Source: an uncultured Candidatus Saccharibacteria bacterium (GTDB taxonomy: Bacteria; Patescibacteriota; Minisyncoccia; Phycocordibacterales; UBA12088). From it: a stretch of DNA of 64,000 bases. Location: positions 7,880 through 71,879 of the forward strand of contig CAZHFF010000001.1 of assembly GCA_964531785.1 (NCBI GenBank). The letters are read 5' to 3'. This document shows positions 45,201 to 64,000 of this stretch, piece by piece. Positions within the stretch are counted from its first letter, which is position 1; each line of letters opens with the position of its first letter. Under the pieces are notes generated by a model, which saw only the letters and a list, made by a program, of their open reading frames with translations, did not search any database and was not told where the DNA came from. A program made the translations under genes and the position numbers.

Positions 45201-46305
45201 GAGCATTTCTGCCGAAGCGTTCTTATGCGCGATCGAGGTGCCTGATGCGGTAAACACGGCACCTACTGCCGCTGAGACGATCGGGTGGGTGGCGATCGAG
45301 GGAGGTTCCTTCAAGAACGGCGGTATCGCGCTCCTTGCGACCACGACCGGGACGGTCATTACGGGTTGGGGCAATACGCCATGGTACGAGTATCTCTTCC
45401 CCTATGCGTACTTCACGCAGGTACCAGGCATCGTCGCAAGCAAGCAGACACGCTTTGGTGCCGATGGTGGGTGGGTCCGGTACGCTAACGTAAGCCCGGT
45501 ATCCGCCCGGTTCGCTATCGATGAGGCTGATGGTGGGAACCGCGTGCACACAGCGGAAACGGTCGGCATTCTCGGCTTCTCGCAGAGCGGGCTCCTGTAC
45601 CGGAGCACGAGCTCAAGCTGGGTCTTCCCGGCGTACGCCAAGCAGGAGTACGAGTTCACCATTACGCAGTATGACGCCCGCCCGGGCCGCACGTACTTCT
45701 TCCGGCTCTATGACGTTGACGCTGATCTTCCGGTCATGGCCTCGTCGACCGTAGCCGGTTACCCCTCGCTCGTCACTGAGAGCGGGACGCTATCGTTCAC
45801 GGTCACCGGTCTCCCCATGGGGACCACGACCGAAGGCGTCACGACGGACGTGACTGCGAACGCGTTTTCGATCCCGTTTGGCAACCTTGCGCTGGGGGTG
45901 GATCGGACCGCGGGGCAACGGCTGAGCGTAAGCACGAACGCGACGCGGGGGTACCAGGTCTTCCTCTATGAACTCTTTGACATGACCGCCGGTGTCGGGG
46001 CGGTCATCCAGGACATCACTTCGACCAATGCGTCGCCACAGCCCTGGAGCACTGCGTGCACCATAGGTGCAGCAAGTTGCTTTGGTTACCACGCGGGTGA
46101 CAACACGCTCGCCAGTGGATCTACCAGGTTCCTCGTTGACGACACGTTCGCGGCACTTACCACCGCACCCGCCGAGGTCGCGTACAGTAGCGTGCCGGTC
46201 GTCAATGAGCATACAGACATTATATATAGGATACGCGTGGGGAGCAGCCAACCTGCGGGCTACTATGAGAGCCGCATGGGCTACGTGATCGTACCGGTGT
46301 TCTAG
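36268..46305 (+). CDS. Giant (3,345 aa) N-terminally membrane-anchored multi-repeat surface protein with a C-terminal domain shared with the 58242..59438 product
   Basis: Single uninterrupted ORF. TM at aa ~28-50 (GPLFVTGGVLLGLVGVVLVLWPYLGF), 12 ~100-aa modules, five HYHFR-type domains, C-terminus ..YYESRMGYVIVPVF. It starts 6 nt after the previous stop. Confidence 0.85.
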   Translation: MQLPIIEKLVARLCTLQAFCEKQGLSAGPLFVTGGVLLGLVGVVLVLWPYLGFDRAQAAGYQMQTGYYVGDGASKEISGLGFSPELVIIKADTAAGVGAVMKTIAMPQNNVAYLGTATADDVAAQIQLTDDGFIVTGTLTDTINNRYTWVAFSGSDCSSGGTFCVGAYTGDGTGSKAITTGFDPDLVWVKPATAAFATWRSSTMSNNHAQFFSATAEDTSGVYFTTLDSNGFTVGSSNNTSATRYYYVSFKEASGFIDVGTYTGNGIDNRSITGAGFKPDYLFTKQGGAIAAVANISESYGDSSLYFTDTANLVNAVQALENDGFQVGTSDRANANGITYHYAAFGGATAHTSTGTFEAISGTYLGNGNSQTITNLGFEPDLVIVTASGTEHAVFSTKMMGGDSTAYFANNVANFAGGITTLSPNSFTVGSHATVNSPGVEYHFTAYGNAWDPETHTGATDFVIGAYYGNGINLRTLTRVPFSPDMLVIKQNGTALGTWRTSEHVGDSSSYFHALADGVNLIEEFTGDGFILGNAANVNTSGSLYWYFGFATSSNFSVGTYSGTGAPQNIETPFEPDAAWVKRTGATQGVMRMASTTGSSSYPFLNAATVQTGAIEGFYDAGFAVGAAPEANTSGVDNYRYAVWRDTTERGTSTYRMQTGYYVGDGGAKEISGLGFTPDLVLIKADTTAGIGVTWKSIAMPQNTAAYLGSATADNTAGQITLEPAGFRVAGTNTNTANTRYTWIAFTGSDCTATGQFCVGRYSGDGAGSKTIDTGFAPDLVWAKHATSTVVPPSWRSSLMPVDYAQFYSAAAQDTTGAYFRTLDGSGFTVGSSNTLNFGVYYFAAFKEVAGSIDVGTYLGNSTVGRSITGVGFRPDWVFTKNSTGAVAAVYNLQESYGNHSSYFSDTNNLTGAIQALESNGFQVGSNSTAHSNGVTYYYAAFGGAEAPTPSGTYQMLSGSYVGTGDVRVISDLGFAPDLVIVKGNTGQPGIFTTRMMGGDSSVYLDAPTGNIANAITALRPDSFALGTDATVNSPGVTYHWTAFGNAWKPDTNSGAADLMIGAYYGNGLDGRDIGRLPFSPDMLTIKRNGTTQGTWRTSEHTGDSSSFFTATADGANRIQAFKTSAFEIGTNAEVNTANSVYWYFAFATSSTFTVGTYSGSGSAQDIDVGFSPYHTWVKHTGATRAVMRPNTVVGDGALPFINASLVTGAIAGTAGTGFSVGTAAETNTSGSNNYRYAAWKQLSLAQEHYHFRADDGTEASASSLTGGTEDTPLGDVREGRPYRLRLAVSNRATVAASTTGLRLEYAEKVTTCSAASSWTRIDADSDAWRMYDSPNLTDGADTTNIALGDGGVSDPNPTFLTPNGGVKDASDEISPIALSAGAFVEVEYAITPTVHAGDGTTYCFRVSAQGEPLSVYGTYPEATFAVHLIATTTGSLVSEVVVPSEDVHVGGAFVLSDLGGGDTHAITDIVVTESGTVHASTGLANVRLFYEYDTSAPYDCASESFGGTETQYGLTVAGGFSGADGTAAFAGSVQASSTQSVCLYVVLDVEESALSGETIALSIAEASDLTASNNDQVRLVATPLVIPGTLSLRDARLTQAHYHFRLDNGSEAGASSATAGSEDTPLMNLPKASPRRIRLGISNEGSATSSATAYRLEYAERQGTCAATEVGWTDVGESGGSWDMYDSTNLTEGDDTTNVAISNGGVSDENTDYLVVNGGVKDTSSETGALVLGPTEFVDLEYSVVALSGASDGATYCFRVTDAGVPLKDYWTYPEATIAADVLVSALGAHQSAVKASSTSVLVAGAWVIADQAGSRNVTSVTLTESGSINAAADLANIRLHYELDTSAPYDCASVSYSGGSPQFGTTQGAFTGPNGTATFTDTVGISTTQTLCLFAVMDVTSSAEDGATIALMIADPSANVVVSSGTVNPNTSVAPTGSTTVQKATLSLVHYHFRNDDGSEALATSKTGGVEDVPVSGAQPGLVERLRLGVSNEGSTTSDQTTLLLQYAEKVSTCGAADAWQEVGTPGSHWSLSESAYLTDGSDTTNIALALGGVTDENPSFLTPNGGVHEHRPLSDELVLDDDEFVELEYVIEPNTDALPGTTYCFRVTDQYGPLPSYLSYPEATLKAKRDFFIQRGVVDIANGTSTASILAGTHYTAPGASTSAFIRITNALATGAGATAGGGTQNANNVTVGILNPSDIESGVTFIRSGTSNSTRIYWELIEYVGLPGGDNEIKVRAQERATYGSSDLQVTTGTVSGVNEDGQVVVFITGQQNPAANTTGYHAGLSTAEWNGGSDTATFTRGATTSVAAVVSYAVVEFTGANWRIQRSEHTYVTPGATETETITPVNSVARAFLHTQKRTGANQVDELGHQVWLEGVGEVRYSIPSTAALASTHVSVAWVIENTQTNGSPMVVYRSNSSQGAGGPEPSTYPISINGTVSAVNNASIFMNMWGLGDTLNHPRAIMGAGITSTTFYELWISDTGSGRAYRTEVVDWPTAELSFEQYYYAWYVDNGLLTPSDMWPAGPSGIGENTAITSYDKPPSSGEVLRLRMAVRVHGSSISRETKSWKLQYGVRTATCDAVDMWFDTGDSASTTALWRGYNAVPEDGTPLSTDPPTLGDLKLSVSITGRAGTYEEANPSAPNPYKTAIGESIEYDWILEANGVPDETSYCFRMVEDSDDLFGTYTYYPTLTTAGFEVEQKAWRWYDDEESLTPVVPLAATNTAPVDVSMGAVLKLRVLLQELAGKAGSGVKFKLQFSESSDPGTFTDVASQDACTTGSRFCYTDGAGEDNATITASVIFGADSCVAGVGPGCGTHNELPYTPEVVGEVGTTTTDLAGTTVTLLHTYTDPIFIVEAITGDSGGGSANRPAAAMITATTTSSFTVRIQETDDEADDHGEELIAYLVMERGAYLLPDGRRVDVNSTTTLAYRNNVLPGTGNDTCAFEQAFDESPIVYTSLQSNNNAGTPDFLTATQESISAEAFLCAIEVPDAVNTAPTAAETIGWVAIEGGSFKNGGIALLATTTGTVITGWGNTPWYEYLFPYAYFTQVPGIVASKQTRFGADGGWVRYANVSPVSARFAIDEADGGNRVHTAETVGILGFSQSGLLYRSTSSSWVFPAYAKQEYEFTITQYDARPGRTYFFRLYDVDADLPVMASSTVAGYPSLVTESGTLSFTVTGLPMGTTTEGVTTDVTANAFSIPFGNLALGVDRTAGQRLSVSTNATRGYQVFLYELFDMTAGVGAVIQDITSTNASPQPWSTACTIGAASCFGYHAGDNTLASGSTRFLVDDTFAALTTAPAEVAYSSVPVVNEHTDIIYRIRVGSSQPAGYYESRMGYVIVPVF
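36448..38229 (+). repeat. Super-repeat copy 1 (six ~100-aa modules, aa 61-654 of the giant protein)
   Basis: Starts YQMQTGYYVGDGASKEISGLGFSPELVIIKADTAAG and ends ..GVDNYRYAVWRDTTERGTST. Collinear with copy 2. Confidence 0.8.
38230..40011 (+). repeat. Super-repeat copy 2 (six modules, aa 655-1248)
   Basis: Starts YRMQTGYYVGDGGAKEISGLGFTPDLVLIKADTTAG and ends ..GSNNYRYAAWKQLSLAQE. Confidence 0.8.
40012..42640 (+). repeat. HYHFR-type tandem units (starts at 40012, 41071 and 42121); the first two are ~350 aa two-domain units
   Basis: HYHFRADDGTEA.., HYHFRLDNGSEA.., HYHFRNDDGSEA... Each has RLRL..SN, Y/LRLEYAE/LLLQYAE, TC, TTN[IV]A, TYCFRV and YPEAT. Confidence 0.8.
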
Positions 46306-46359: not shown

Positions 46360-49300
46360 ATGCGCGAACGACCAGTTCCAGTACCCGTTGAGGAGGCCCA
46401 GCCTACGCGCGGCTTGGTCTTGAGCGAGATACCGACGAGCGGTGAGCTTGAAGCGCTCACAAGTAGTGAGCTGCTCGCACGCATGCGCTCGCTCGAGGAT
46501 TGGAAGGGGGCCGCGCACATGCTCATCACCACAGAGGAGCTCGACGCAGATCCGAAGCAGCGGTCGGCGGTGGAGACCCGAGTAGCCGAACTCGTGAGCG
46601 AGCTGGTGAAGCAGGGCAAGCTCTATCCGGGACAGGAGTACGTGATTGATCCTCTGACCGGGGTCGGAGCGTGGCTTCCGCACCAAGCGTCAAGCGAGGC
46701 ACAAGGTGTGGAAACGACCGATCTGTCGCCGAGTCCATCGAAAGGGGTACCAAAGCCGGAGCGTGTCATATCGACCGAGCATAAGCTGCTCGAGGTGCTC
46801 GGCTTCAAGAAGCAACAGAAAGACCTCGTGAACGCGTCGAACGGCGAACTGATCGCGGCGGCGCAGGAGCTCGCGCACCTCGACCCGAACATATTCAAGG
46901 TGGACGTCGGCGCGTTTCCGCACGACCTCGATGCGCTCACGGTCGAAGACCTGACCTCGCGGCCGGATGATGCGCCGGATGTCATGCGTCGCAAGATCGC
47001 GCTCAGAAAGGAGCTCGTCGATTGGATAGCTGCTGAAACGACCCACTTCGAGCAGCGTGAAGTATCTGGAGCACCCGAGTTGTCGCGCTCGGGAGCGCCC
47101 GCTGCGGTGCCACCGACCACCGAAGCCGGGGTGCCGCCCGTGCCGCCTAAGGCGGAAGGTAGTACCGAGCCGCATGAACCGAGCGAGACCGAACGTGCCG
47201 CGTACCAGGCGCGGGTTCGTGACGAGCTGGATCACCTGCCTCGGGAAGAGCTCGGTTCACCTGAGCAGCTCGCAGCGAACGAGCTCTTGGGTCGCTTGGA
47301 ACGTCAGACTGATCCTAAACGTATTGATGACCTGCGTGTCGGTATCGACAAGAACTTGAAACGTATGCGCGAGCGCATCAGCGCGCGCCGGGGTACGAGC
47401 ACTACGGGCGAGTCCGGCACAGCCGTAGTGCCGGAACCGGTCGCGACCGAAGACCTGGAAACGGTCGCGCGTTCGCTCGAGTCGCTCACAGACGTAGATG
47501 AGATCCGTACCGGACGCAAGCGCCTCGTGCTCATGTATGCCGACCTCGTCCTCAATGCGCTCCATACGCACAGTACGACCGATGCGCACTTCGCAGAACC
47601 AATGGGGATAACGCTCATGCGCAAGATCGTCGAGAAGCTCCGGAGCACGACCGAAATGACCGAGCAGACCGATCGGCTGGCCGAACTCATTTTGGAAGCG
47701 ATAGAGCGCAATCATGAAGAGATCACTCGGTATGGCATAGTGTTGCCGCCGTTGCCGAAACTCCCCGCGATACCTGAGACACCAACCGAACCCATGTCCG
47801 ATGCGGCCGCGGAAGGAGTGGTCGAAGAACCGCCAGCAGCGGAGCCGACCGCAGAACCAGCGGCACCCCGGCTGGCGGCAGAGACTGCGGGTGAGACGAA
47901 GCCAGACGTGAGCGAAACGTTCGAGACGGGCCTCGAGCAGGCGCTCGAACATAACGCGGCACTCCCCAATGCGGACACCTCCTCGGCTGACCGTTCGGTG
48001 AACATAACCTACAACATCGGTGATGGTGCCCAGGTCGGTGTCGTTGCCCATGAGGGTGTACACAACAGCATGATAGGTATAGCCGCGCAGCCGGGTACGG
48101 CGGCGGGTGTACCTGCCGAACGGACCGAACCATCGGTGCCGGAGCGGGTGCAGCAGACTTCGTCGGCGCCTGAGGCAGTGACCGAAAAACAGGATGCTCC
48201 AACAGCTCTGCCAGCGCATGAGCCGACCCCCGTAGCAGAACCGGCACCGGAGACGCCCACACAACCCAAGGCAGTACCTGCGGGTGCACCGGAGACAGAT
48301 GCCGCAGAAACCGCACCGACCCCGCCGGAGACAGCGTCCGATCGGACGGGCGAGGAAGCAGCTGCTCTCGCTGCACCAGCAGACATGGTGCCTAGCGAAG
48401 CCGCCGGAGAATCAGTATCGTCGCCTGGTGTGACTGCACCAGAAGCCACCCCGGCTGAGCCGACACCTGAAGCAGCTCCATCAGATCCGTACCAGCAGAC
48501 ACGTGCCGAGTACCACGAGTTCACGAGCCGGCTCCGTGAGGCGGGGAAGGAGTATCAGGCGGCGCTTATGGCGCTTACGACCCGGCGCAACGAGCTAGGT
48601 TTGCTGAAGCGGGCAAAAAATGCAAAGGAGCTCGTTCTGCTTGCGAAGGTTAGAGATGAGAAAGAGGCGGCGTATGACGCCCTCCTCGGCGAGGTTCGCA
48701 CGAAACGCACCGAGCGGGTCACAAAGATCGTCGAGGCCGTGAAAGCGCGACGCGAACGACGAGGCGATCTGGAAGAGGCGGTCTCGCGAGATCCCGCGGC
48801 GCATATCCTTGCGTGGCACGAGGCGATCCTCTACGCGCAGACTATGCGTCACGCAGCGACCATAGAGCAGCTGCAAGGCGTTGGGGCCCAAAAGGAACAT
48901 GGTCCGCTGGTACGGCGCATGCAAGCGGTCGCCGAGTACTACCGTAAGATACCTCTTGCGAACAAGCTCACCCTCCGCGTCGTTGGGGCGGGTGCGATCG
49001 GTGCGGGAGCAGCGCTCCTTGCCGCACCGACAGCAGCGGCTGCGGCGTTCTGGGCAGGTGGCGCAGCGGCCACCCGCGCAGGCGTCGGTTTCCTGACCGG
49101 TATGGGGGCAGCCGTCGGTACGAAGAAAGGACTCGATTCCGTTATCGAGAAGCGGGCCGCGCGAAAGACCGGGGAGCTCAAGAAGGATTTTGCCGGCAAG
49201 CACCTTGCAGATACACGGAAACAGTTGCTCGCGATACGCAAGCAAGAGCGCCAGCTGAAAACCGGTGCAACGGTGGTCGCGGGAGCAGCAGCGTTCGGCG

Positions 49301-51669
49301 CGGGCGCGACCGCAGGTCAAGCGGCTGCGCATGTCGTTGATGGCGGATCGCTCGCAGACGCCGAGGCATATACGGGCGTGCCCCGTGCGCTCGGCAACCT
49401 CAAGCGCGCGGCTGATTGGGTCGATGAGAAGGTCGGCCTCAGGGGTGTTCCCGAGACACCTGATGTGGCAGAGTCTGAGGTAGCCGGAATACCGGAAACA
49501 GAAAAGACGGCCTCGGTCAGTGAACCAAGCGTGCAGCCTGAGGACGCACCGATCAGCGAGCCGGCACGTTCGCCTGCGCCCGAAGTGGGAGAACAGGTAG
49601 AGCCGGATGCACAGCGTGCGGAACAGCCCGAGGCGAACCCGATCGAGTCGCGCGGCGTTTTCCGGCCGGAGGGTACGCTTGAAGTGCGGCTCGAGGATGA
49701 TTCCATCATGCTCCGTGATCCGAGCGATCCCCGTGTTGTCTACACCTGCTTCGACTCAGGTCGATGCTACCGCACCACACTGAACGATCCTACCGCGCCG
49801 GGTTACCGCAATAGCGACGGACCCCAGGATTCACCTGAGATCGAGAAGCACGAGCTCCCCCCGGCTATGCGTGAGCGGGTCATGCGGTGGGATCGTGAGC
49901 ACGACCTGCAAGCGGCGCTCGATCGCGAAGTACGGGAAGGAGCTATCCCGCACGCGGCCCCAAGAAGCGAGGAGGGGCGCGTCTGGTTGAACGACGAGCA
50001 AATGTTTAGTGAGGTAGAGCCGCAGGTCGGGCAACGCACGCCTCTAGCGCAGCCTGAAACGGCGCTACAGGTCGGTGCGATTGATACAACCTATGCACAG
50101 GGCGAGAGTCCAGTGAGCGTCATTCAGGATATGGTGCGAAAGCTCGACCCATCGCTCACCGAAGAGCAGGTCGGACGCGTTGCGTACCGACTGTTCCTTG
50201 AGATCCAGCATGACGGTGCGGCACAAGAGGCATTCAATGTACACGAGGGGAAGTGGAACCTGGTACGACCGGGAAGTACGGCCCGATACAGATTCGACGA
50301 GGCCCTTCTTGAGCGAGAGCTGCAGTCGGTGCGCGGAACACCGGCGACCGAACCTGCTCCGATCGAAGCACGTACAGAGGAACCTGTTGTCCTGCGCGAG
50401 AAGCAGGAACCGGCGCGTGTGGCCGCTCCGGAGCCTGTGCGTTACCGGCCGGGTGACTTCCCACGAACGCCGGAGCTTTTCAATAATCTTGAGAACCTGG
50501 GGCAGGTACCGGACCACCTGGGCGCAGGGACTCGGCCGGCGCTTGAGTACCTGTTCTCGTCCGGTGCGTGGAGCGCCGAGGTGACCGCACTCAGGCCGCG
50601 CATCCTCAGTGCATGGGGTGCGCTCAGCCAGGTGCCCGTAGCCAAGCTCATCGACGAAACCCCTGGGGCAGAGTTCGAGCTTGCGGGCGGCTCGGTACGG
50701 CTCACGCCCGAGACGGAGCAGCTGCTCGTCGTCCTTTCACACCAGCTTGAGCGAATGCCAGGCGCACGCGGGTTGCTCGAAGTGCACGCAGCTGCGGGCG
50801 GGACGTTCGGCGCGCTCTTACAGGACATCGCGCGTGAACAGAGCGGTGTCGCTGCACCTCCACAGCAGGTCGCGCCTAGTATACGCACACCCGCATACAA
50901 GCCGGGCGGCCGCATGGGCCTGGTGCTGCGCGACCCAGGTCGAGTAGCGGTGGAGATGATCGCCGATAACCGGCAGCAGGCAGAGATCGACCGTGCACGA
51001 GCCATTGCCGCATCTCGGGGGTACGAGCATGGGCGAGGCGGGTACGGCCGTCATACGCCGCTCGTGCCGGGGAGGGCAGGGGTCGGCGTGTATGGTGAGG
51101 CGGTCGGGGAGGTCCCGATCTCCCGGAACGGTTCGCTCCGGATAGGTGGGCGCGCGGGTGCTGAGGTCACCGTACAGGGCGGGCCGACGCTGCGTGCACC
51201 TGGAGCAGCAACGCCCGAAGCACTCGCGCAGGTCGAAGGCGACCTCCTGCGTGATCTGCGTTCAGGCTGGTTCAACGCCCCGAACTTGACCGACGCTGAG
51301 ATCACCCGGTTCCGCACTATCGATACTATTAGCGCTGAAGAGCTCGCGCTCTATACACCCAAGGCACAGCAAGCACTCATTGATGCTGGGCTCGCGGAGC
51401 AAGGAGAAGCACTGAGCCGGTACATGCGCAGCCTCATGCGCCAGGGGATCGATCGCCTCGAGGCGAACGCGGCAGCAGGGGTGAGGCGAGCGCCGGGGTA
51501 TAAGGTGGTGGGCGGACCCGACGCGAGCGCGCTCAGTCCGTTCGAGTATGCGCACCATATGAAGGGTATCAATGCGCGCGACCTGCCCGTCGGCGCAGCA
51601 CGCAACCGTCCTCTTAGGCAGCAGGGTTTCGGTATTCGCCGGGGCAGACCGTATAACTTAAATCAGTAG
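46360..51669 (+). CDS. 1,769-aa orphan protein: no signal peptide, Pro/Glu/Ala/Thr-rich spacers, coiled-coil segments, central Gly/Ala-rich hydrophobic hairpins
   Basis: Single ORF. TATAGT hexamer (46343-46348) lies 11 nt upstream. Hydrophobic G/A-rich segments are encoded at ~48960-49340 (LRVVGAGAIGAGAALLAAPTAAAAAFWAGGAA..GFLTGMGAAVG; ATVVAGAAAFGAGATAG). I recognise no catalytic motifs. Confidence 0.75.
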   Translation: MRERPVPVPVEEAQPTRGLVLSEIPTSGELEALTSSELLARMRSLEDWKGAAHMLITTEELDADPKQRSAVETRVAELVSELVKQGKLYPGQEYVIDPLTGVGAWLPHQASSEAQGVETTDLSPSPSKGVPKPERVISTEHKLLEVLGFKKQQKDLVNASNGELIAAAQELAHLDPNIFKVDVGAFPHDLDALTVEDLTSRPDDAPDVMRRKIALRKELVDWIAAETTHFEQREVSGAPELSRSGAPAAVPPTTEAGVPPVPPKAEGSTEPHEPSETERAAYQARVRDELDHLPREELGSPEQLAANELLGRLERQTDPKRIDDLRVGIDKNLKRMRERISARRGTSTTGESGTAVVPEPVATEDLETVARSLESLTDVDEIRTGRKRLVLMYADLVLNALHTHSTTDAHFAEPMGITLMRKIVEKLRSTTEMTEQTDRLAELILEAIERNHEEITRYGIVLPPLPKLPAIPETPTEPMSDAAAEGVVEEPPAAEPTAEPAAPRLAAETAGETKPDVSETFETGLEQALEHNAALPNADTSSADRSVNITYNIGDGAQVGVVAHEGVHNSMIGIAAQPGTAAGVPAERTEPSVPERVQQTSSAPEAVTEKQDAPTALPAHEPTPVAEPAPETPTQPKAVPAGAPETDAAETAPTPPETASDRTGEEAAALAAPADMVPSEAAGESVSSPGVTAPEATPAEPTPEAAPSDPYQQTRAEYHEFTSRLREAGKEYQAALMALTTRRNELGLLKRAKNAKELVLLAKVRDEKEAAYDALLGEVRTKRTERVTKIVEAVKARRERRGDLEEAVSRDPAAHILAWHEAILYAQTMRHAATIEQLQGVGAQKEHGPLVRRMQAVAEYYRKIPLANKLTLRVVGAGAIGAGAALLAAPTAAAAAFWAGGAAATRAGVGFLTGMGAAVGTKKGLDSVIEKRAARKTGELKKDFAGKHLADTRKQLLAIRKQERQLKTGATVVAGAAAFGAGATAGQAAAHVVDGGSLADAEAYTGVPRALGNLKRAADWVDEKVGLRGVPETPDVAESEVAGIPETEKTASVSEPSVQPEDAPISEPARSPAPEVGEQVEPDAQRAEQPEANPIESRGVFRPEGTLEVRLEDDSIMLRDPSDPRVVYTCFDSGRCYRTTLNDPTAPGYRNSDGPQDSPEIEKHELPPAMRERVMRWDREHDLQAALDREVREGAIPHAAPRSEEGRVWLNDEQMFSEVEPQVGQRTPLAQPETALQVGAIDTTYAQGESPVSVIQDMVRKLDPSLTEEQVGRVAYRLFLEIQHDGAAQEAFNVHEGKWNLVRPGSTARYRFDEALLERELQSVRGTPATEPAPIEARTEEPVVLREKQEPARVAAPEPVRYRPGDFPRTPELFNNLENLGQVPDHLGAGTRPALEYLFSSGAWSAEVTALRPRILSAWGALSQVPVAKLIDETPGAEFELAGGSVRLTPETEQLLVVLSHQLERMPGARGLLEVHAAAGGTFGALLQDIAREQSGVAAPPQQVAPSIRTPAYKPGGRMGLVLRDPGRVAVEMIADNRQQAEIDRARAIAASRGYEHGRGGYGRHTPLVPGRAGVGVYGEAVGEVPISRNGSLRIGGRAGAEVTVQGGPTLRAPGAATPEALAQVEGDLLRDLRSGWFNAPNLTDAEITRFRTIDTISAEELALYTPKAQQALIDAGLAEQGEALSRYMRSLMRQGIDRLEANAAAGVRRAPGYKVVGGPDASALSPFEYAHHMKGINARDLPVGAARNRPLRQQGFGIRRGRPYNLNQ

Positions 51670-56718: not shown

Positions 56719-58056
56719 ATGCGACGCATGCTCCGTGCCCGTGCGTCGGTGTCCTGGTACCCTATAGGCGTCGTGATGTTGTTTGGCGCAAGTTTCGCAC
56801 TGCTACCTCTGCCTGCTGTCGCACAGGAGAGCCTATCGCTTACGGTTACGCCGCCCCTCTTTCAGGTGAGCCTCAATCCGGGCGAGATCTGGAGCACCAC
56901 CGTCAGGGTCGTGAACGGCGGTGTCGTGCCCGTCATGCTCTATGCGGATCCGGTGCCGTTTTCGCCTCTGGGTGAGGCCGGCCGGCCGCGGTTCGACCTC
57001 ACGGCCCGAGCAGGTGAGGGTTCGGACGATCGGGAGCTGCTCGCCGATTGGATCGAGACGCTCGAAGCACCGCTTGAGGTGCGCGGTGAGCAAACGGTCG
57101 AGGTGCCGATCACCATACGGGTACCTGCGGACGCCTCGCCGGGTGGCCACTACGCAGCGGTCCTCATCGGGAACCGGGCGCCTGAAGCGCAAGGCGAGAG
57201 CACGGTGAGCGTCGCGAGCTCGATAGCGACCCTGTTCCTCGTGACCGTTGCGGGCGACATCGACGAGCGGGCGAGGATACGCGATTTCGTGAGCGACGAA
57301 CGGCTCTACGAGAAGCCGGAGGCGCGGTTCTCGCTCCGGTTCGAGAACCAGGGCAACGTCCACCTCATGCCCCAGGGCGTGATCACGATCTACAACATGT
57401 TCGGCAAAGAACGGGGCAGGGTCACGTTCAATGAGGGCGAGCACTTCGGCAATGTCTTGCCGGGCAGTATTCGCAAGTTCTCCTTTAGCTGGAAAGCCGA
57501 TTCGGGGGTATGGGACATCGGGCGCTACCGGGCGGAAGCGGTCCTTGGCTATGGCCGGGAAGCCAAGCGGTTCACCCAGGCGACGACATATTTTTATGTG
57601 CTGCCGATTCTGCCGCTTGCCGGTGCGCTCGGCGGAACGCTTTGCTTCGTACTCTTGCTCCTCTGGGGGGTTAGGGCGTACATTCGCCGGGCACTCCTCC
57701 TTGAGACCGCGCACCTCGTTGACCGGCCGGTCGCAGAGCCCGTGTCCGTACCGATCGTGCGAGCGCATATCGCGCTCGAGCCCCGTACGCTCCTGCGACC
57801 GATCTCGGAAGGTATGGTCGACCTCAGGCGTATCGCACGGCCGACGAGTATGCCCGAAGCATCGAACGTGCCGACAGAGCCCGTGTTCGGTACGATCGGT
57901 TTTCTCACAAAGTACCGCTACTTCTTTCTGTTCATCGCGCTTGCCGGTCTCGGATGGGTCCTCATATCCGCGCTCCTTACCGACGTGCTCACCTATGAGC
58001 GATCGTTCGAGGTTTCGGTCGACGAGGCAGCATCTGAGGTGCACGACCTTGACTGA
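56719..58056 (+). CDS. Surface-locus paralog 2 (DUF916/DUF3324-like, tentative) with a second C-terminal TM
   Basis: Signal VVMLFGASFALLPLPAVAQE. ADWIETLEAPLEVRGEQTVEVPITIRVPADASPGGHYAAVLIG. FSLRFENQGNVHLMPQGVITIYNMFGKERGRVTFN. TMs: LAGALGGTLCFVLLLLWGV and YFFLFIALAGLGWVLISALL. The track start 56473 overlaps paralog 1. Confidence 0.7.
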   Translation: MRRMLRARASVSWYPIGVVMLFGASFALLPLPAVAQESLSLTVTPPLFQVSLNPGEIWSTTVRVVNGGVVPVMLYADPVPFSPLGEAGRPRFDLTARAGEGSDDRELLADWIETLEAPLEVRGEQTVEVPITIRVPADASPGGHYAAVLIGNRAPEAQGESTVSVASSIATLFLVTVAGDIDERARIRDFVSDERLYEKPEARFSLRFENQGNVHLMPQGVITIYNMFGKERGRVTFNEGEHFGNVLPGSIRKFSFSWKADSGVWDIGRYRAEAVLGYGREAKRFTQATTYFYVLPILPLAGALGGTLCFVLLLLWGVRAYIRRALLLETAHLVDRPVAEPVSVPIVRAHIALEPRTLLRPISEGMVDLRRIARPTSMPEASNVPTEPVFGTIGFLTKYRYFFLFIALAGLGWVLISALLTDVLTYERSFEVSVDEAASEVHDLD

Positions 58057-58241: not shown

Positions 58242-59438
58242 ATGAATTCGTTAGCACATGTACTTACTTTGCCGGTGCGATCCATAGCGATCGTCACCGC
58301 GCTCGCACTTCTTGCCTGGAGCATGGGCCTGCCGGCCTGGATACACACCGCACAGGCAGCAACCCTCGAGGAGGTGAGCGACACGCTCTCGGTCGGACCT
58401 TCCGCGACCGAAGGTGCGTCCTCGCCCGGTGCCAACGCCGCGCACCGCATCCGCTTCACCACACCGAGCGGTATGGTGGGAGGCCAGAATCTCCGCGTCA
58501 CGTTCGATCCGGAGAATAGCCTGTTCGACCTTACAAATGTTGCCGTTGGGGATATCTACATCGTAGCGGGCGCTACTAAGGTGGACGCTGTCGGTAGCTG
58601 TACCGGTGGTGATACAAGCGAGATATACCCGACCATGAACCCTGACAGCATTGATTTCACCGTCTGTTCGGGTGACACGATCGCGTCGACGACCGACTTC
58701 ATCATCGATGTCGGCACCTCGACGGGCGGTAACCTGATCAATAACCCGGCAACTCCCGGTTCGTACGTGATCCAGATCGGCGGCGACCCGGCAAGCACCG
58801 CGGCCGACTCTGGCGATACCCGCGTGGTGATCCTCAACGAGGTCACCGTGACCGCGGCGGTCAATACGATCTTCACCTTCAGCGTGAACCCGGTCATTGA
58901 GGGTGTCACGGTAAACGGCGACGCCGTGCAAACCTCGACCACGACGACCGCGACCGCTATACCGTTCGGCGTGCTGTCACCGAATACGGCAAAGCTTGCA
59001 GCACAGGAGCTTCGCGTCGACACGAATGCCCTCAACGGCTTCAGCGTCACGGTCCAGGCGGACCAGACCCTGACCGCAGGGAATGGCGCAACCATCGATG
59101 AGTTTACGGACGGTACAGCCGACGCGACCCCGACCGAATGGGCTGGTCCGACCGGCACGATGGGTGCGGACGACACCTATGGCCACTGGGGACTCACCAC
59201 CGATGATACTGCGCTCTCGAGCCTCCTCGATTTCTTCCCGGACCCGGAGCCGCGCTATGTCGGCAACTTCATCGACAACCCGGTCGAGGTCTTCTATCAC
59301 AATACTGCGGTCGAACAAACTGCGGGAACCGGTGTGGGCTCGACCACGGTCGCGTACAAGATCGAGATCATGGAGCTGCAGGAAGCGGCAAAGGATTATA
59401 CTGCGACGCTCACCTACATCGCGACCCCGGTCTTCTAA
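58242..59438 (+). CDS. Secreted 398-aa protein. Its C-terminal ~190 aa is homologous to the C-terminus of the giant protein (WxL-like, tentative). Its N-terminal domain is related to that of the 61275..63149 product.
   Basis: Signal ..IAIVTALALLAWSMGLPAWIHTAQA. C-terminal IFTFSVNP..ATAIPFGVL..LRVDTNALNGFSVTV..YGHWG..VAYKIEI..YTATLTYIATPVF parallels LSFTVTG..AFSIPFGNL..LSVSTNATRGYQVFL..FGYHAG..IIYRIRV..YESRMGYVIVPVF. Confidence 0.7.
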   Translation: MNSLAHVLTLPVRSIAIVTALALLAWSMGLPAWIHTAQAATLEEVSDTLSVGPSATEGASSPGANAAHRIRFTTPSGMVGGQNLRVTFDPENSLFDLTNVAVGDIYIVAGATKVDAVGSCTGGDTSEIYPTMNPDSIDFTVCSGDTIASTTDFIIDVGTSTGGNLINNPATPGSYVIQIGGDPASTAADSGDTRVVILNEVTVTAAVNTIFTFSVNPVIEGVTVNGDAVQTSTTTTATAIPFGVLSPNTAKLAAQELRVDTNALNGFSVTVQADQTLTAGNGATIDEFTDGTADATPTEWAGPTGTMGADDTYGHWGLTTDDTALSSLLDFFPDPEPRYVGNFIDNPVEVFYHNTAVEQTAGTGVGSTTVAYKIEIMELQEAAKDYTATLTYIATPVF

Positions 59439-59586: not shown

Positions 59587-60660
59587 ATGTTCCAAACGGT
59601 TTTTCGCGTTTCGCGTCCGCTCGTACTCATTGCCCTGGTATTGTTTGCGATACTTAGCTCGGCATCGGAGCTTTTCGCTCAAGGCTTGGGAGTCACCATT
59701 GCACCTGCAACGATCGATGAGCGGGTCGACCCGGGTGGCAGTCTGACAGGCGCGCTCACGGTGACCAATGTGAGCAATGAGCGCGAGACTTACGTGATCG
59801 GCACACGTAACGTGACCGGCATGGAAGCGAAAGGGACGCCGCTCTTCGAGCGTGGCCCGAGCGCAGACCCGCTCGCGTCGGCGAGCTGGATCAAGCTCGA
59901 GGTTACCATGCTTGAGCTGGGACCCGGCGAGAGCGGACAGGTGCCCTACCGGATCGAGGTACCCGTGGATGCGGAGCCGGGAGGACACTTTGCGGCGTTC
60001 TTTATTACCCGCGAGGCTGATACGGTGCTCGAGTCCGGTGCTGGGGTCGGGTTCCACGTCGCATCGCTCGCGAACCTGCGGGTGAGCGGCGAGGTGGTCG
60101 AAGATATCGTGTTCAAGGAGTTCTCGACCGGCAAACTGCTCTACACGAAGCCACCGGTCGACTTTTCGGTCCGGTTCGAGAATACCGGCAACGTACATGA
60201 ACGGCCCCAGGGCATCATTACGTTGACCGACCTCTTAGGGAACGAGGTGAGCCAGCTGCCGGTCAACGAGAACGCTGGGGCTATTCTGCCAAGGGCCGAG
60301 CGCCTGTTCGCAGAGGTGTGGGAGCATGAGGGGTTCCTCCTCGGTCGGTACCAGGCACGAGCAAGCGTCATGTTCGGCGATCGCGAGAAGAAGACGATCA
60401 CGCGGGAGACGACGTTCTGGGTCGTGCCACTGCGCGAGGTCGGCGTGGTGCTCGGTAGCATACTCGGCCTCGTCCTGCTCTTAGCGCTCGTGGTCCGCGC
60501 GTACGTACGGCGCATACTGAGGTCCGCTGGCGCTGACACGGCACGAACCAGTGCGGCACGCGCTCGGGCGAGCTTTGCGCAGAGGCTCTTACGGACTACG
60601 CTCTGGTTCGCTGCACTCGTTGCCCTCGGTGTGATAAGCCTCATCGTGTTCTTTGCCTAG
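59587..60660 (+). CDS. Surface-locus paralog 3 (DUF916/DUF3324-like, tentative) with two C-terminal TMs
   Basis: Signal LVLIALVLFAILSSASELFAQ. ASWIKLEVTMLELGPGESGQVPYRIEVPVDAEPGGHFAAFFIT. FSVRFENTGNVHERPQGIITLTDLLGNEVSQLPVN. TMs: VGVVLGSILGLVLLLALVV and LWFAALVALGVISLIVFF. Confidence 0.7.
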   Translation: MFQTVFRVSRPLVLIALVLFAILSSASELFAQGLGVTIAPATIDERVDPGGSLTGALTVTNVSNERETYVIGTRNVTGMEAKGTPLFERGPSADPLASASWIKLEVTMLELGPGESGQVPYRIEVPVDAEPGGHFAAFFITREADTVLESGAGVGFHVASLANLRVSGEVVEDIVFKEFSTGKLLYTKPPVDFSVRFENTGNVHERPQGIITLTDLLGNEVSQLPVNENAGAILPRAERLFAEVWEHEGFLLGRYQARASVMFGDREKKTITRETTFWVVPLREVGVVLGSILGLVLLLALVVRAYVRRILRSAGADTARTSAARARASFAQRLLRTTLWFAALVALGVISLIVFFA

Positions 60661-60758
60661 CCTGGTGACTACTACCCTTGCTCGGGATACGTCCCGCTGG
60701 TACGCTAGAGGTACGGAAGGTAAGTGGTCGCATCCGTGCTCGTTTTCACAGCTTGTTT

Positions 60759-61115
60759 ATGCTTTGGCAGTACACACGACGTGATACCAAGGTGCTTCTC
60801 CTTGCGGTGCTCGCAACGTTTTCGGCGTATGGTTTCCTGGTCGGCGAAGGCTGGCGGACCGCGAGCAGCGGCATGCACCTCACGGCGAACACGGTCGCGG
60901 TCATGGCCGGGGTCGAGGAAAACCGGACGAACACGCTGCTCGCGGAACTGAACGCGCGCGAACGAGCCCTGGCTGCACGCGAGGCGGCCGCAGGCGCTGG
61001 TCTTCGTAGTGATGATGGGATACTGCTTGTCGTCACGCTCATCGGCACGTCGCTCCTAGGTCTTATTCTGCTCAACTTCTATCTTGACAGCCGGCGGCGG
61101 TTCACGTTCAAGTAG
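60759..61115 (+). CDS. Small 2-TM protein with an intervening coiled-coil
   Basis: MLWQYTRRDTKVLLLAVLATFSAYGFLV..NTLLAELNARERALAAREAA..ILLVVTLIGTSLLGLILLNFYL. Inner part of track ORF 60678..61115. Confidence 0.4.
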   Translation: MLWQYTRRDTKVLLLAVLATFSAYGFLVGEGWRTASSGMHLTANTVAVMAGVEENRTNTLLAELNARERALAAREAAAGAGLRSDDGILLVVTLIGTSLLGLILLNFYLDSRRRFTFK

Positions 61116-61274: not shown

Positions 61275-63149
61275 ATGAGTCCCCGCTTCACTCGTTCTGC
61301 TCCTCTCCTTTTCCTCTTCGTGATAGGTATGCTGCTCGGAATGGGGAGTCACGGTGCGGCGCAGACCACCTCGTACCTGTCGAACATTCGCAACCTGCTC
61401 TCCACGTCGGCACCGAATACGCCGACCGACCAGACGCTCACCTTCACGCTGGGCCAGTCGATACCGCCCAATGGCGCGATCGAGCTCATGTTCAACGAGG
61501 GTGGGTTCACCATACCCGCGCTCCTCAACTTCAGCGACGTCGATGTGGCGTTCGGGCCGCCGGGCGGTCCTTACACCGAGCGGCCGCTTTCCTCTGCACA
61601 GACCGCCGGTTCGGACCGGATCGTAGTGACATCGGGCACTGCTGGTAAGGTGCGCGTCGACCTCAATACCTCGGTCGGTATCGGGGCGGGGAACGAGGTG
61701 CGTATCAAGATCGGTCACCACGCGACGTTCGGTGCGTTCGGTGACCAGCGAATGGTGCTCGGCACGACGACCAAGTCCTACCCGGTGACGATCTACACCT
61801 ATGATGCGGCCGATGCCGAGCTCGAGTACGGGCGCACCATGATAGCTATCGTTGATCGGGTCGGCGTGGGTCCGGTCGACACCGACGATGTCACTCCGCC
61901 GGTCATACTGAGCGCCGAACCCTCAGGACTCCTCCAGGTCGGGACCCGTGCCGTGCAGCTCTGGGTCGTGACCGACGAGCGTTCCCGCTGTCGTTGGGCG
62001 ACCTCAAGCATCAGCTACGTGACGATGCCGTACCAGTTTACCTCGACGAGCACCTCAGGGCTGGCGTTCTGGAACTTCGGGATCTACAGCGGACTCGAGG
62101 ATGATACCGACTACGAAGTCTACGTCAGCTGTCGGGATTTCCGTGACAATACCATCGACCCACCCTACCTCCTTGAGTTCACGGTCGGTATCGAGCCCGG
62201 GAGTGCTTCCTCGACCGCGACTTCGACGGGAACCGGGACCGGCACAGGCACGTCGACCGCGACCTCAAGCTGCGTCGGCCCGGAGTGTACCGGCAGCGGC
62301 ACAGGGAGCGGCACCGGTGCATCGGGAAGCGGCAGCGGCTCGAGCCCTTCCGGGGGTGACGGATCGGGAAGCGGCAGCGGGAGCACGGGAACCGGGTCTG
62401 GCGCCGGTACGAAGCTCCCCCAGGCCTCTGTCCGTATCGACGGGTACGCGTACCCGGGCGCGACGGTCTCGATACTCCAGGACGGGGCACTCTCACGTGC
62501 GATCGTTGCCGGGAGCGATGCGCGCTTCGCGCACACGATCGACGGTCTGGATCGCGGTTCGTACTCGTATGGTGTCTTTGCGGTCGACACAGCGGGAGTG
62601 CGAAGCGCGACGTATGCGACGACGATGTGGCTCCGTTCGGCCAGCTTGAGCACCTTGTCGAACATCATGCTGCCGCCCACGCTCAGTGTTGCTGCGACGA
62701 AAGTAGACCCGGGTGTGCCGATCGCTGTGTCGGGCTTCAGTGCGCCCGGTGCGCTCGTAACGGTGTGGCTGCGTCCGCGACTTGCGGTGGTTACGACCGC
62801 TGACGTCGTGGCAACAACGACCGCAGCCGCAAGCGGCAGCTACACGCTCACGCTCGCAACGGACACGCTGCCTCAAGGAACCTACGAGCTTGTCGCACAG
62901 GGAAGCATCGCCGAGGCCGGTATAGAGAGCGATAAGAGCGCACGGAAGACGATCGGTGTCGGTGTCGATGTAGGACCCTCGGAAGGAGCAGGACAGGGGG
63001 ATCTCAACGGCGACGGGTTCGTGAACCTCGTTGACTTCTCGATCTTGCTCTTTAACTGGAACACCGCGAACGCGGTTGCAGACATCAACAAGGACGGAAT
63101 CGTGTCGCTTCCCGACTTCTCGATCATGTTGTTCTACTGGACCGGATAA
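61275..63149 (+). CDS. Secreted 624-aa surface protein: N-terminal domain related to the 58242 product, Ig-like middle domains, Gly/Ser/Thr linker, C-terminal dockerin-like module
   Basis: Signal MSPRFTRSAPLLFLFVIGMLLGMGSHGAAQ. Linker STGTGTGTGTS..GSGTGSGTGASGSGSGS..GSGSGSGSTGTGSGAG. C-terminus listed separately. Confidence 0.7.
   Translation: MSPRFTRSAPLLFLFVIGMLLGMGSHGAAQTTSYLSNIRNLLSTSAPNTPTDQTLTFTLGQSIPPNGAIELMFNEGGFTIPALLNFSDVDVAFGPPGGPYTERPLSSAQTAGSDRIVVTSGTAGKVRVDLNTSVGIGAGNEVRIKIGHHATFGAFGDQRMVLGTTTKSYPVTIYTYDAADAELEYGRTMIAIVDRVGVGPVDTDDVTPPVILSAEPSGLLQVGTRAVQLWVVTDERSRCRWATSSISYVTMPYQFTSTSTSGLAFWNFGIYSGLEDDTDYEVYVSCRDFRDNTIDPPYLLEFTVGIEPGSASSTATSTGTGTGTGTSTATSSCVGPECTGSGTGSGTGASGSGSGSSPSGGDGSGSGSGSTGTGSGAGTKLPQASVRIDGYAYPGATVSILQDGALSRAIVAGSDARFAHTIDGLDRGSYSYGVFAVDTAGVRSATYATTMWLRSASLSTLSNIMLPPTLSVAATKVDPGVPIAVSGFSAPGALVTVWLRPRLAVVTTADVVATTTAAASGSYTLTLATDTLPQGTYELVAQGSIAEAGIESDKSARKTIGVGVDVGPSEGAGQGDLNGDGFVNLVDFSILLFNWNTANAVADINKDGIVSLPDFSIMLFYWTG
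62991..63146 (+). other. Dockerin-like duplicated Ca-binding (EF-hand-like) module at the C-terminus of the 61275..63149 product
   Basis: GDLNGDGFVNLVDFSILLFNW and ADINKDGIVSLPDFSIMLFYW, two D-x-N-x-DG-x-[VI]-x(3)-D-F segments ~30 aa apart. Confidence 0.7.
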
Positions 63150-63361
63150 CGACCCGACCGATGACGCGTGAGTGCGCTACGTCAGACACCTCGCAGCTTT
63201 ATGTTATCTTGAATTGCCAAGTGATAAGGGCACCAGCGTGCGCAACGCGGACCTGCGTATCCGTTCGATCGATCACCTGGCGGTGCTGCATGAGCGCATC
63301 AGTGATCTTCGTTTTATCCACATCATGCTTCGCACGTGTTGCGCTCGCATCGTGTTGCTAG

Positions 63362-63370
63362 TGGTATACT
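63362..63370 (+). promoter_or_regulatory. Extended -10 promoter element TGGTATACT upstream of hsp20 (55-nt leader)
   Basis: Sequence gttgctagTGGTATACTgac. The same GGTATACT core also occurs upstream of 7467, 58242 (58111-58118) and 59587 (59552-59559). Confidence 0.45.
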
Positions 63371-63425
63371 GACAGTACTAACGCAGGAGGTTCGTCACGC
63401 GTTCTTTAGGGGTTAGCACATTCCT

Positions 63426-63911
63426 ATGGGCACATTCATGGATAAACTCAAAGGCAAAGGTATCGTCGACAAGGATGGCAATCCGTCTGCTACTCCTCCG
63501 CCTGCTGGCGGCCACCAGGAGGTGATCCCCGGGCACGCGCTCCAGCTTCCGGTCGACGTGTACCAGGCTGACCACGAGATCATCATCTACGCGCAGCTTG
63601 CGGGTATGGATATGCATACGCTCGATGTCTCGATATCGGGCGATAATGACGTGGTCACGATACAGGGCAGCTCACTTAGGCCGGAGCACCTCATGAAAGA
63701 GTCACACGCGGCGAACAGCGGTGAATTCACCCTTGAGGAGTGCCACTGGGGTGACTTCTATCGCCAGATCATCCTTCCGGACGAGATCGACCCTGAGCGC
63801 GCCGAGGCGAAGACAAAGGACGGCGTGCTCGTTCTCAGGCTTTCGCTTGCGGGGAAGGGTACCACCGGTCACAAGCTCAATATCGTACGTGCGGACGATC
63901 ACCAGGCATAG
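63426..63911 (+). CDS. Hsp20/alpha-crystallin family small heat-shock protein
   Basis: Alpha-crystallin core LPVDVYQADHEIIIYAQLAGMDMHTLDVSISGDNDVVTIQG..FYRQIILPDEIDPERAEAKTKDGVLVLRL. Confidence 0.9.
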   Translation: MGTFMDKLKGKGIVDKDGNPSATPPPAGGHQEVIPGHALQLPVDVYQADHEIIIYAQLAGMDMHTLDVSISGDNDVVTIQGSSLRPEHLMKESHAANSGEFTLEECHWGDFYRQIILPDEIDPERAEAKTKDGVLVLRLSLAGKGTTGHKLNIVRADDHQA

Positions 63912-64000
63912 GAGCGCACGAGCAAGCGCCATGTCCGCTCTCCGTACCGAAAAAACAAGCAAGACGCACGAACCTCGCTCGGGATGTATTTGGCTGAAGC

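Follow-up and report, generated by a model that had tools for sequence, protein, structure and literature searches.

In the present study, we examined the gene of a secreted protein of 624 amino acids (aa), which lies at positions 61275-63149 of a stretch of Patescibacterial DNA of 64,000 nucleotides (nt); the whole of this stretch is called the window here, and the dockerin gene and its cluster neighbours described below are on the plus strand. The C-terminus of the protein was confirmed by sequence comparison as a canonical two-repeat type I dockerin, and a cohesin gene was found two genes downstream of the dockerin gene, where it is cut by the end of the window. The dockerin probably binds the cohesin of the 517-aa membrane protein encoded there, and would thus tether the 624-aa protein to the cell. 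As judged from their sequences and gene order, the two genes appear to form a non-cellulosomal surface-display pair within a conserved, enzyme-free surface locus.

Results

The dockerin module

The first-pass annotation of the window had described the last 52 aa of the 624-aa protein as dockerin-like, with two calcium-loop/helix repeats, and our translation agrees with it. The module covers aa 573-624 (nt 62991-63146), as delimited by Pfam, a match in PDB and a motif scan, and its calcium loops start at nt 63000 and 63081. The dockerin hidden Markov model (HMM), which had been proposed as a check, does score: Pfam Dockerin_1 (PF00404) matched aa 575-618 with 27.1 bits (E 4.9e-6), above its curated gathering cutoff of 22.9 bits. 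EF-hand models of Pfam overlapped the module weakly, all of them far under their own cutoffs and outscored by Dockerin_1, and the model of GC-type dockerins (NCBIfam NF041540) gave 21.1 bits, below its cutoff of 29. Among solved structures, the top match of the dockerin stretch was the cellulosomal dockerin 2y3n_B (E 1.1e-3), with both calcium loops aligned. The two tandem segments of about 22 residues, DLNGDGFVNLVD and DINKDGIVSLPD, each consist of a 12-residue calcium loop followed by a helix; the ligands are D or N at loop positions 1, 3 and 5 and D at position 12, that is, D576/N578/D580/D587 in the first loop and D603/N605/D607/D614 in the second. The Asp ligands of the loops were invariant across 45 aligned homologs, and the AlphaFold2 (AF2) model places helices after the loops at residues 585-593 and 612-623. 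With a mean pairwise identity of 73%, against 38-43% for the other domains, the dockerin is the most conserved block of its protein. A second dockerin was found neither by a regular-expression motif scan nor by HMM in the 64-kb window.

The cohesin gene at the window edge

It had also been claimed that the window holds no recognisable cohesin-bearing partner. This stands for the complete genes: Pfam at E <=10 detected no cohesin in any protein of the cluster, both giant proteins included, and a lineage-specific cohesin HMM matched no open reading frame (ORF) of the window. It does not stand for the reading frame at the edge. The gene that follows the dockerin gene encodes a small heat-shock protein, HSP20 (63426-63911, Pfam HSP20), and behind it a frame begins with the ATG at 63931 and continues past the window end at 64000. 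These positions (63931-64000) hold the first 23 codons of a cohesin-bearing membrane protein, the rest of which was read from contig L088. This contig was fetched with the HSP20 sequence of the window, extends 1.9 kb past it, and is identical to window positions 61882-64000 (0 mismatches in 2119 bases). The apparent lack of a cohesin partner is therefore an artefact of the window edge; because the cohesin gene is cut off by the window end, the partner is missing from the view of the window alone.

The full protein in L088 has 517 aa and is composed, in order, of a signal peptide, the cohesin domain (aa 70-179), a Pro-rich linker, Ig-like domains, a transmembrane (TM) helix at aa 416-434 and a charged, coiled-coil tail of 80 aa. 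The Pfam Cohesin model (PF00963), with a gathering cutoff of 24.1 bits, matched it with 24.9 bits. In its orthologs, the products of the gene next to HSP20 on the side away from the dockerin gene, the same model gave 38.4 bits (locus L001), 31.2 bits (L083), 29.2 bits (L003) and 27.4 bits (L018). When a profile of the cohesin region from 30 loci was compared with solved structures, 10 of the 14 matches were cohesins, led by 5aoz and 5m2o. The cohesin is the most conserved extracellular module of its own protein, with 50% identity. Cohesin-like N-termini were first spotted in the genes adjoining the dockerin gene of a related locus, L070.

Conserved gene order across loci

Local HMMs made from alignments were applied to 85 sequences, namely the window and 84 fetched loci, and a stereotyped gene order was recovered. 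It begins with a large protein of the form X-CTD, in which CTD is a shared C-terminal domain, and continues with two proteins resembling the Gram-positive membrane protein WxLIP, an NTD-CTD protein of about 380 aa (NTD, N-terminal domain), a third WxLIP-like protein of about 357 aa, a small TM protein, the NTD-D2-Ig-Ig-Dockerin protein (D2, its second domain), HSP20 and finally the Cohesin-Ig-TM protein. Downstream linkage was counted where a locus has 2.6 kb or more of sequence on that side (58 loci), and upstream linkage where it has 7 kb or more (55 loci). In 47 of 58 loci, a cohesin gene lies downstream on the same strand, at a median of 653 bp past the dockerin stop, and HSP20 stands between it and the dockerin gene in 45 of 58. 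On the upstream side, a WxLIP-like gene was found in 55 of 55 loci and a CTD protein in 53 of 55. The arrangement is kept down to about 30% identity.

Furthermore, a second type of locus occurs in the same genomes (L070, 8418-15166; also L055, L071, L080 and L081) and represents an independent pairing of dockerin and cohesin. Here a WxLIP-like gene is followed by a Cys-rich-Ig-Ig-dockerin gene, which stands directly before two cohesin-TM genes, one encoding a cohesin-TM protein of about 350 aa and the other a cohesin-Ig-Ig-TM protein of about 640 aa. The opposite strand of these type-2 loci encodes an "adaptor" protein of about 239 aa with a cohesin and a divergent dockerin, which suggests a hierarchical, enzyme-free cohesin-dockerin assembly.

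Eleven loci keep the dockerin protein but have neither HSP20 nor a cohesin gene within 10 kb downstream (L011, L012, L016, L017, L022, L025, L033, L040, L058, L068 and L084), and several of their dockerins carry Ser or Thr in place of Phe at position 18, in helix 1. The dockerins of these loci are of the same type as the others, and the substitution is no evidence for a different partner. The loci without a cohesin gene also speak for an explanation in which the module would be a pair of dockerin-like EF hands that binds no other protein and acts as a calcium-dependent stabilising cap or as a tail that binds glycan or the cell envelope. The weak EF-hand matches overlapping the module would fit such a function, as would its 73% identity against the 50% of the presumed cohesin. 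However, Dockerin_1 outscores the EF-hand models, which all stay far under their cutoffs, and cohesin genes are repeatedly adjacent to dockerin genes in two independent types of locus; with the cohesin gene so placed, we consider a module without a partner quite unlikely.

Architecture and family of the dockerin protein

The 624-aa protein was taken from the translation of the ORF at 61275-63149; a start at the in-frame GTG further upstream (61221) is less likely. A single hydrophobic segment, aa 5-23, is present and forms the N-terminal signal peptide, so that the protein is secreted, as had been proposed, and is without a membrane or wall anchor. The AF2 model was built on an alignment of homologs and reached a mean predicted local distance difference test (pLDDT) score of 81.7. 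After the signal peptide, it shows the N-terminal beta domain, the NTD (aa ~31-200, nt 61365-61874), which is supported by a pLDDT above 90 and by an hhalign match to a 398-aa neighbour, and continues with the Ig/Fn3-like domain D2 (aa ~203-306, nt 61881-62192). The Gly/Ser/Thr linker noticed in the first-pass annotation was located at aa 309-380 (nt 62199-62414), where both the composition and a pLDDT below 50 indicate disorder. Between the linker and the dockerin, the model shows two Ig-like domains (aa ~382-565, nt 62418-62969), which in homologs are Big_6/Big_13-like according to precomputed assignments (PF17936/PF19077). Read more narrowly from the model, the folded parts span aa 31-195 (NTD), 205-305 (D2) and 384-562 (the two Ig-like domains). 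Foldseek of the full model against PDB returned only generic matches to Ig chains, such as S-layer proteins and receptors, and was uninformative on the NTD.

No catalytic or glycoside hydrolase domain was found by Pfam in the 624-aa protein or in its cluster neighbours, which is in line with the non-cellulosomal role suggested earlier. The family comprises at least 127 homologs of 600-640 aa, and many members already carry the Dockerin_1 tag in public databases. Among species-representative genomes, 445 loci related to the dockerin protein were found, and the 80 retained from them are mostly of Patescibacteria/Parcubacteria (Kaiser-, Adler-, Nomura-, Falkow-, Azam- and Lloydbacteria, Paceibacterota), with a few labelled just "bacterium" or otherwise. 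The 624-aa protein is best read as an Ig-rich surface protein without enzyme domains that is secreted by a Patescibacterium (Parcubacteria/Paceibacteria group).

Proteins with the shared N- and C-terminal domains

The 398-aa secreted protein (58242-59438), delimited by local HMM and hhalign, is composed of an NTD and the CTD of about 190 aa. A loose parallel between its N-terminus and that of the dockerin protein had been remarked before, and it proved to be more than loose: hhalign aligned aa 25-198 of the 624-aa protein with aa 32-203 of the 398-aa protein at 99.4% probability (E 2.3e-21), and by this profile comparison the two NTDs are true homologs. The CTD of the 398-aa protein in turn matched the C-terminus of the giant 3345-aa protein (36268-46305) with 97.6% and E 3.3e-12. 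The giant protein contains seven DUF7483 domains by Pfam and holds the CTD in its last ~173 aa (~45784-46302).

The CTD ends in ...PVF followed by the stop and belongs to no Pfam family. In public data, its family counts 1477 cluster representatives, which occur as stand-alone domains or within proteins of ~380 aa and ~1000 aa, and its position is always C-terminal. By analogy, it seems to behave as a WxL-type anchoring module, in layout only. Pfam WxL (PF13731) gave no match in 35 plus 10 CTD proteins; hhalign of the CTD against genuine Enterococcus and Bacillus WxL sequences and a WxL profile did not exceed a probability of 3%, and a profile search of PDB was also non-significant. On these three results, the CTD is not recognisable as a WxL domain.

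The first-pass annotation had assumed a scaffold for the dockerin, and had named one of the unassigned repeats in the giant 3345-aa protein as a possible docking site. Both proteins are encoded in the same strand-oriented cluster and the giant protein brings seven uncharacterised DUF7483 repeats, which leaves room for such a contact; however, the giant protein shows no cohesin by Pfam or by the lineage-specific HMM, and its only link to the cluster is the CTD common to the 398-aa protein, with which it looks like cargo rather than a scaffold. In addition, other genomes have the giant gene elsewhere or with different domains, and the cohesin gene stays adjacent to the dockerin gene. We therefore regard docking on the giant protein as highly improbable. 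The next ORF, of 1769 aa (46360-51669), has no Pfam match and no signal peptide, and lies in the part of the window with the highest guanine-plus-cytosine content (0.63) and the strongest AT skew (0.15). It was ruled out as a carrier of CTD or cohesin, as it has no similarity to either.

WxLIP-like proteins and small neighbours

The 357-aa protein (59587-60660) was characterised by AF2, hhalign and the Pfam matches of its family, and consists of a signal peptide, two beta-sandwich domains and C-terminal TM helices. The WxLIP_PGBD/DUF916 models of Pfam matched 21 of 36 members of the family; the window copy itself was not among them. Its AF2 model (pLDDT 88.8) gave as top PDB matches in Foldseek 9i25_C and 9i1y, the WxLIP of E. 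faecium, and hhalign against an annotated Enterococcus WxLIP reached 95.4% (E 1.8e-8) with both domains covered. Pfam DUF3324 did not match the second domain. By profile and model comparison, the 357-aa protein is a homolog of the Gram-positive WxLIP (a DUF916/DUF3324 membrane protein). Foldseek also returned a resemblance to the chaperone-usher chaperones CfaA, Caf1M and FimC. Two further WxLIP-like paralogs, at about 55473/55536-56705 and 56719-58056, were located by local HMM and by gene calls in contig L087.

The small two-TM protein encoded between the WxLIP-like and dockerin genes (60678-61115, from gene calls and topology) has 145 aa if read from a TTG, and probably 118 aa from the ATG at 60759. 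It contains a central Ala/Glu/Arg-rich coiled coil and had 57 phmmer matches among the fetched loci, where the position of its gene between these two neighbours is conserved. The distant relative L001 (5652-9946) has an insertion of three FGE-sulfatase-domain genes together with an ABC transporter, which separates the dockerin gene from the small TM gene. HSP20, for its part, is a cytoplasmic-type chaperone within a cluster of surface proteins.

The constant presence of the WxLIP-like gene raises the question of whether the dockerin docks on another protein of the locus, either on a WxLIP-like membrane protein, with its two Ig-like beta-sandwiches, or on the CTD of the 398-aa or the giant protein; in effect, it would then stand in for the C-terminal WxL-type module that a "long" subunit would have in a surface complex of the WxL kind. 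The upstream WxLIP-like gene (55 of 55 loci) is more tightly linked than the cohesin gene (47 of 58), the type-2 loci also begin with such a gene directly before the Ig-Ig-dockerin gene, and a minimal locus of one WxLIP, a short CTD protein and a long dockerin protein mirrors the Gram-positive set of one WxLIP, a short WxL and a long WxL protein. Against this, the known partners of WxLIP are WxL domains (PMC10599100; PDB 9i25), no dockerin is known to bind a WxLIP, and the CTD proteins are its more natural partner. Moreover, a bona fide cohesin adjoins the dockerin gene, which makes docking on WxLIP or CTD unlikely in our judgment.

Discussion

In the present study, we found that a dockerin seemingly without a partner resolves into an ordinary cohesin-dockerin pair which was split by the window edge; such non-cellulosomal pairs are of a known kind. 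The interpretation given in the first-pass annotation is partly supported: the module, the secretion, the linker, the N-terminal domain shared with the 398-aa protein and the non-cellulosomal role were borne out, and the giant protein as scaffold and the lack of a nearby cohesin partner were not. In the mechanism that we propose, the dockerin would dock in a calcium-dependent manner onto the single N-terminal cohesin of the type I membrane protein starting at nt 63931, and the docking would keep the anchorless 624-aa protein on the surface of the cell, at the tip of a stalk of Ig domains. The two dockerin repeats are near-identical and would permit a dual binding mode. By analogy with established cohesin-dockerin biology, the contact and its dependence on calcium are most likely. 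A structural or adhesive role of the 624-aa protein is what we infer, and adhesion or envelope structure in host-dependent cells may be, more speculatively, the role of the complex.

Several observations weigh against binding of the dockerin to this cohesin. The cohesin score of the 517-aa protein is marginal (24.9 bits against a cutoff of 24.1), a nearby cohesin gene is missing in 11 of the 58 loci while the same type of dockerin is kept, and linkage to the WxLIP-like gene (55 of 55) is tighter than linkage to the cohesin gene (47 of 58). The dockerin is also far more conserved than the cohesin (73% against 50%), a possible sign of other or further partners, and gene order in small genomes can persist without functional coupling. 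With these points taken into account, we still favour the cohesin of the 517-aa protein as the probable partner.

The place of the pair in a conserved surface locus, together with WxLIP-like membrane proteins and proteins that carry the CTD, suggests that proteins displaying the same NTD may be anchored non-covalently by two routes in parallel, one in which the CTD would be held by WxLIP-like proteins and another in which the dockerin would be held by the cohesin. A wider and tentative view, which we consider possible rather than probable, is that the whole cluster is a core cell-surface assembly of Parcubacteria with two orthogonal non-covalent anchoring systems, serving for example as the attachment apparatus or as the envelope or S-layer-like coat that ultra-small cells are seen to have. 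Its parts would be the WxLIP-like anchors, the short and giant CTD proteins, the two proteins with NTD heads, the small TM protein, the dockerin protein, HSP20 and the TM-anchored cohesin; the CTD would go to the chaperone-like WxLIP and the dockerin to the membrane cohesin. In some genomes, the type-2 loci could extend the assembly into a hierarchical enzyme-free network with cohesin-dockerin adaptors.

Patescibacteria are mostly uncultured, ultra-small and host-dependent, and little of their surface machinery has been annotated. The dockerin/cohesin pair, syntenic across the phylum and set in a WxLIP-type locus, offers a concrete proposal, open to testing, for the way in which surface proteins without an anchor may be held on such cells, and the conserved locus is of moderate interest for cell-surface research on ultra-small bacteria. 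In the one genetically tractable relative, the saccharibacterium Southlakia epibionticum, the dockerin-domain envelope protein SEML1_0315 is essential; glycan targeting was proposed for it and a cohesin partner was not mentioned (PMC10633639). By description only, it is like the present protein in being a dockerin-domain cell-envelope protein of Patescibacteria with a proposed surface role. This mention was the only one found in the literature on cohesin or dockerin in Patescibacteria, Parcubacteria, candidate phyla radiation (CPR) and Saccharibacteria, and the searchable literature yielded no account of a conserved cohesin-dockerin/WxLIP-like locus of Patescibacteria.

The WxL or Csc clusters (Siezen 2006, PMC1534035; Hassan, Chaudhuri & Williamson 2023, PMC10599100; PDB 9i25/9i1y) share with the present locus the WxLIP homologs with a two-domain ectodomain and TM helix, the short and long or giant secreted proteins with a common C-terminal module, and the small membrane protein, all in one cluster. 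Such clusters are defined by at least one WxLIP (DUF916 + DUF3324 + TM helix) and at least two WxL-domain proteins (PF13731) (PMC10599100). In our locus, a WxLIP was recognised by the Pfam matches of its family, Foldseek and hhalign, and no WxL-domain protein was found by Pfam or hhalign among the CTD proteins; since the CTD is not detectably WxL, the locus is not classed as a WxL cluster and resembles one in layout only. It differs further in that one "long" subunit carries a dockerin instead, that the cohesin receptor and HSP20 belong to the cluster, and that it is found in Patescibacteria and not in Bacillota.

In comparison with cellulosome anchoring (Clostridium/Ruminococcus type I/II; PDB 2y3n, 5aoz, 5m2o, 2b59), the duplicated F-hand dockerin with near-identical repeats, the cohesin near the cell surface and the cargo without an anchor of its own are alike. 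Unlike in the cellulosome, there is no multi-cohesin scaffoldin, no carbohydrate-active enzyme as cargo, no carbohydrate-binding module and no SLH or sortase anchoring, and the cohesin has a TM helix as its anchor. The locus has one cohesin per protein, no catalytic domain on the dockerin protein and no glycoside hydrolase in the cluster, and thus falls outside the cellulosomes. Cohesin- and dockerin-like modules outside cellulosomes were reportedly surveyed across all three domains of life by Peer et al. (2009). The present pair resembles the non-cellulosomal pairs in having Dockerin_1 and Cohesin on separate secreted proteins, no glycoside hydrolases and a presumed protein-protein docking. 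It is distinguished from them as a phylum-wide syntenic pair in Patescibacteria, placed inside a WxLIP-type locus, with a single cohesin carried on a TM-anchored Ig stalk that ends in a cytoplasmic coiled-coil tail.

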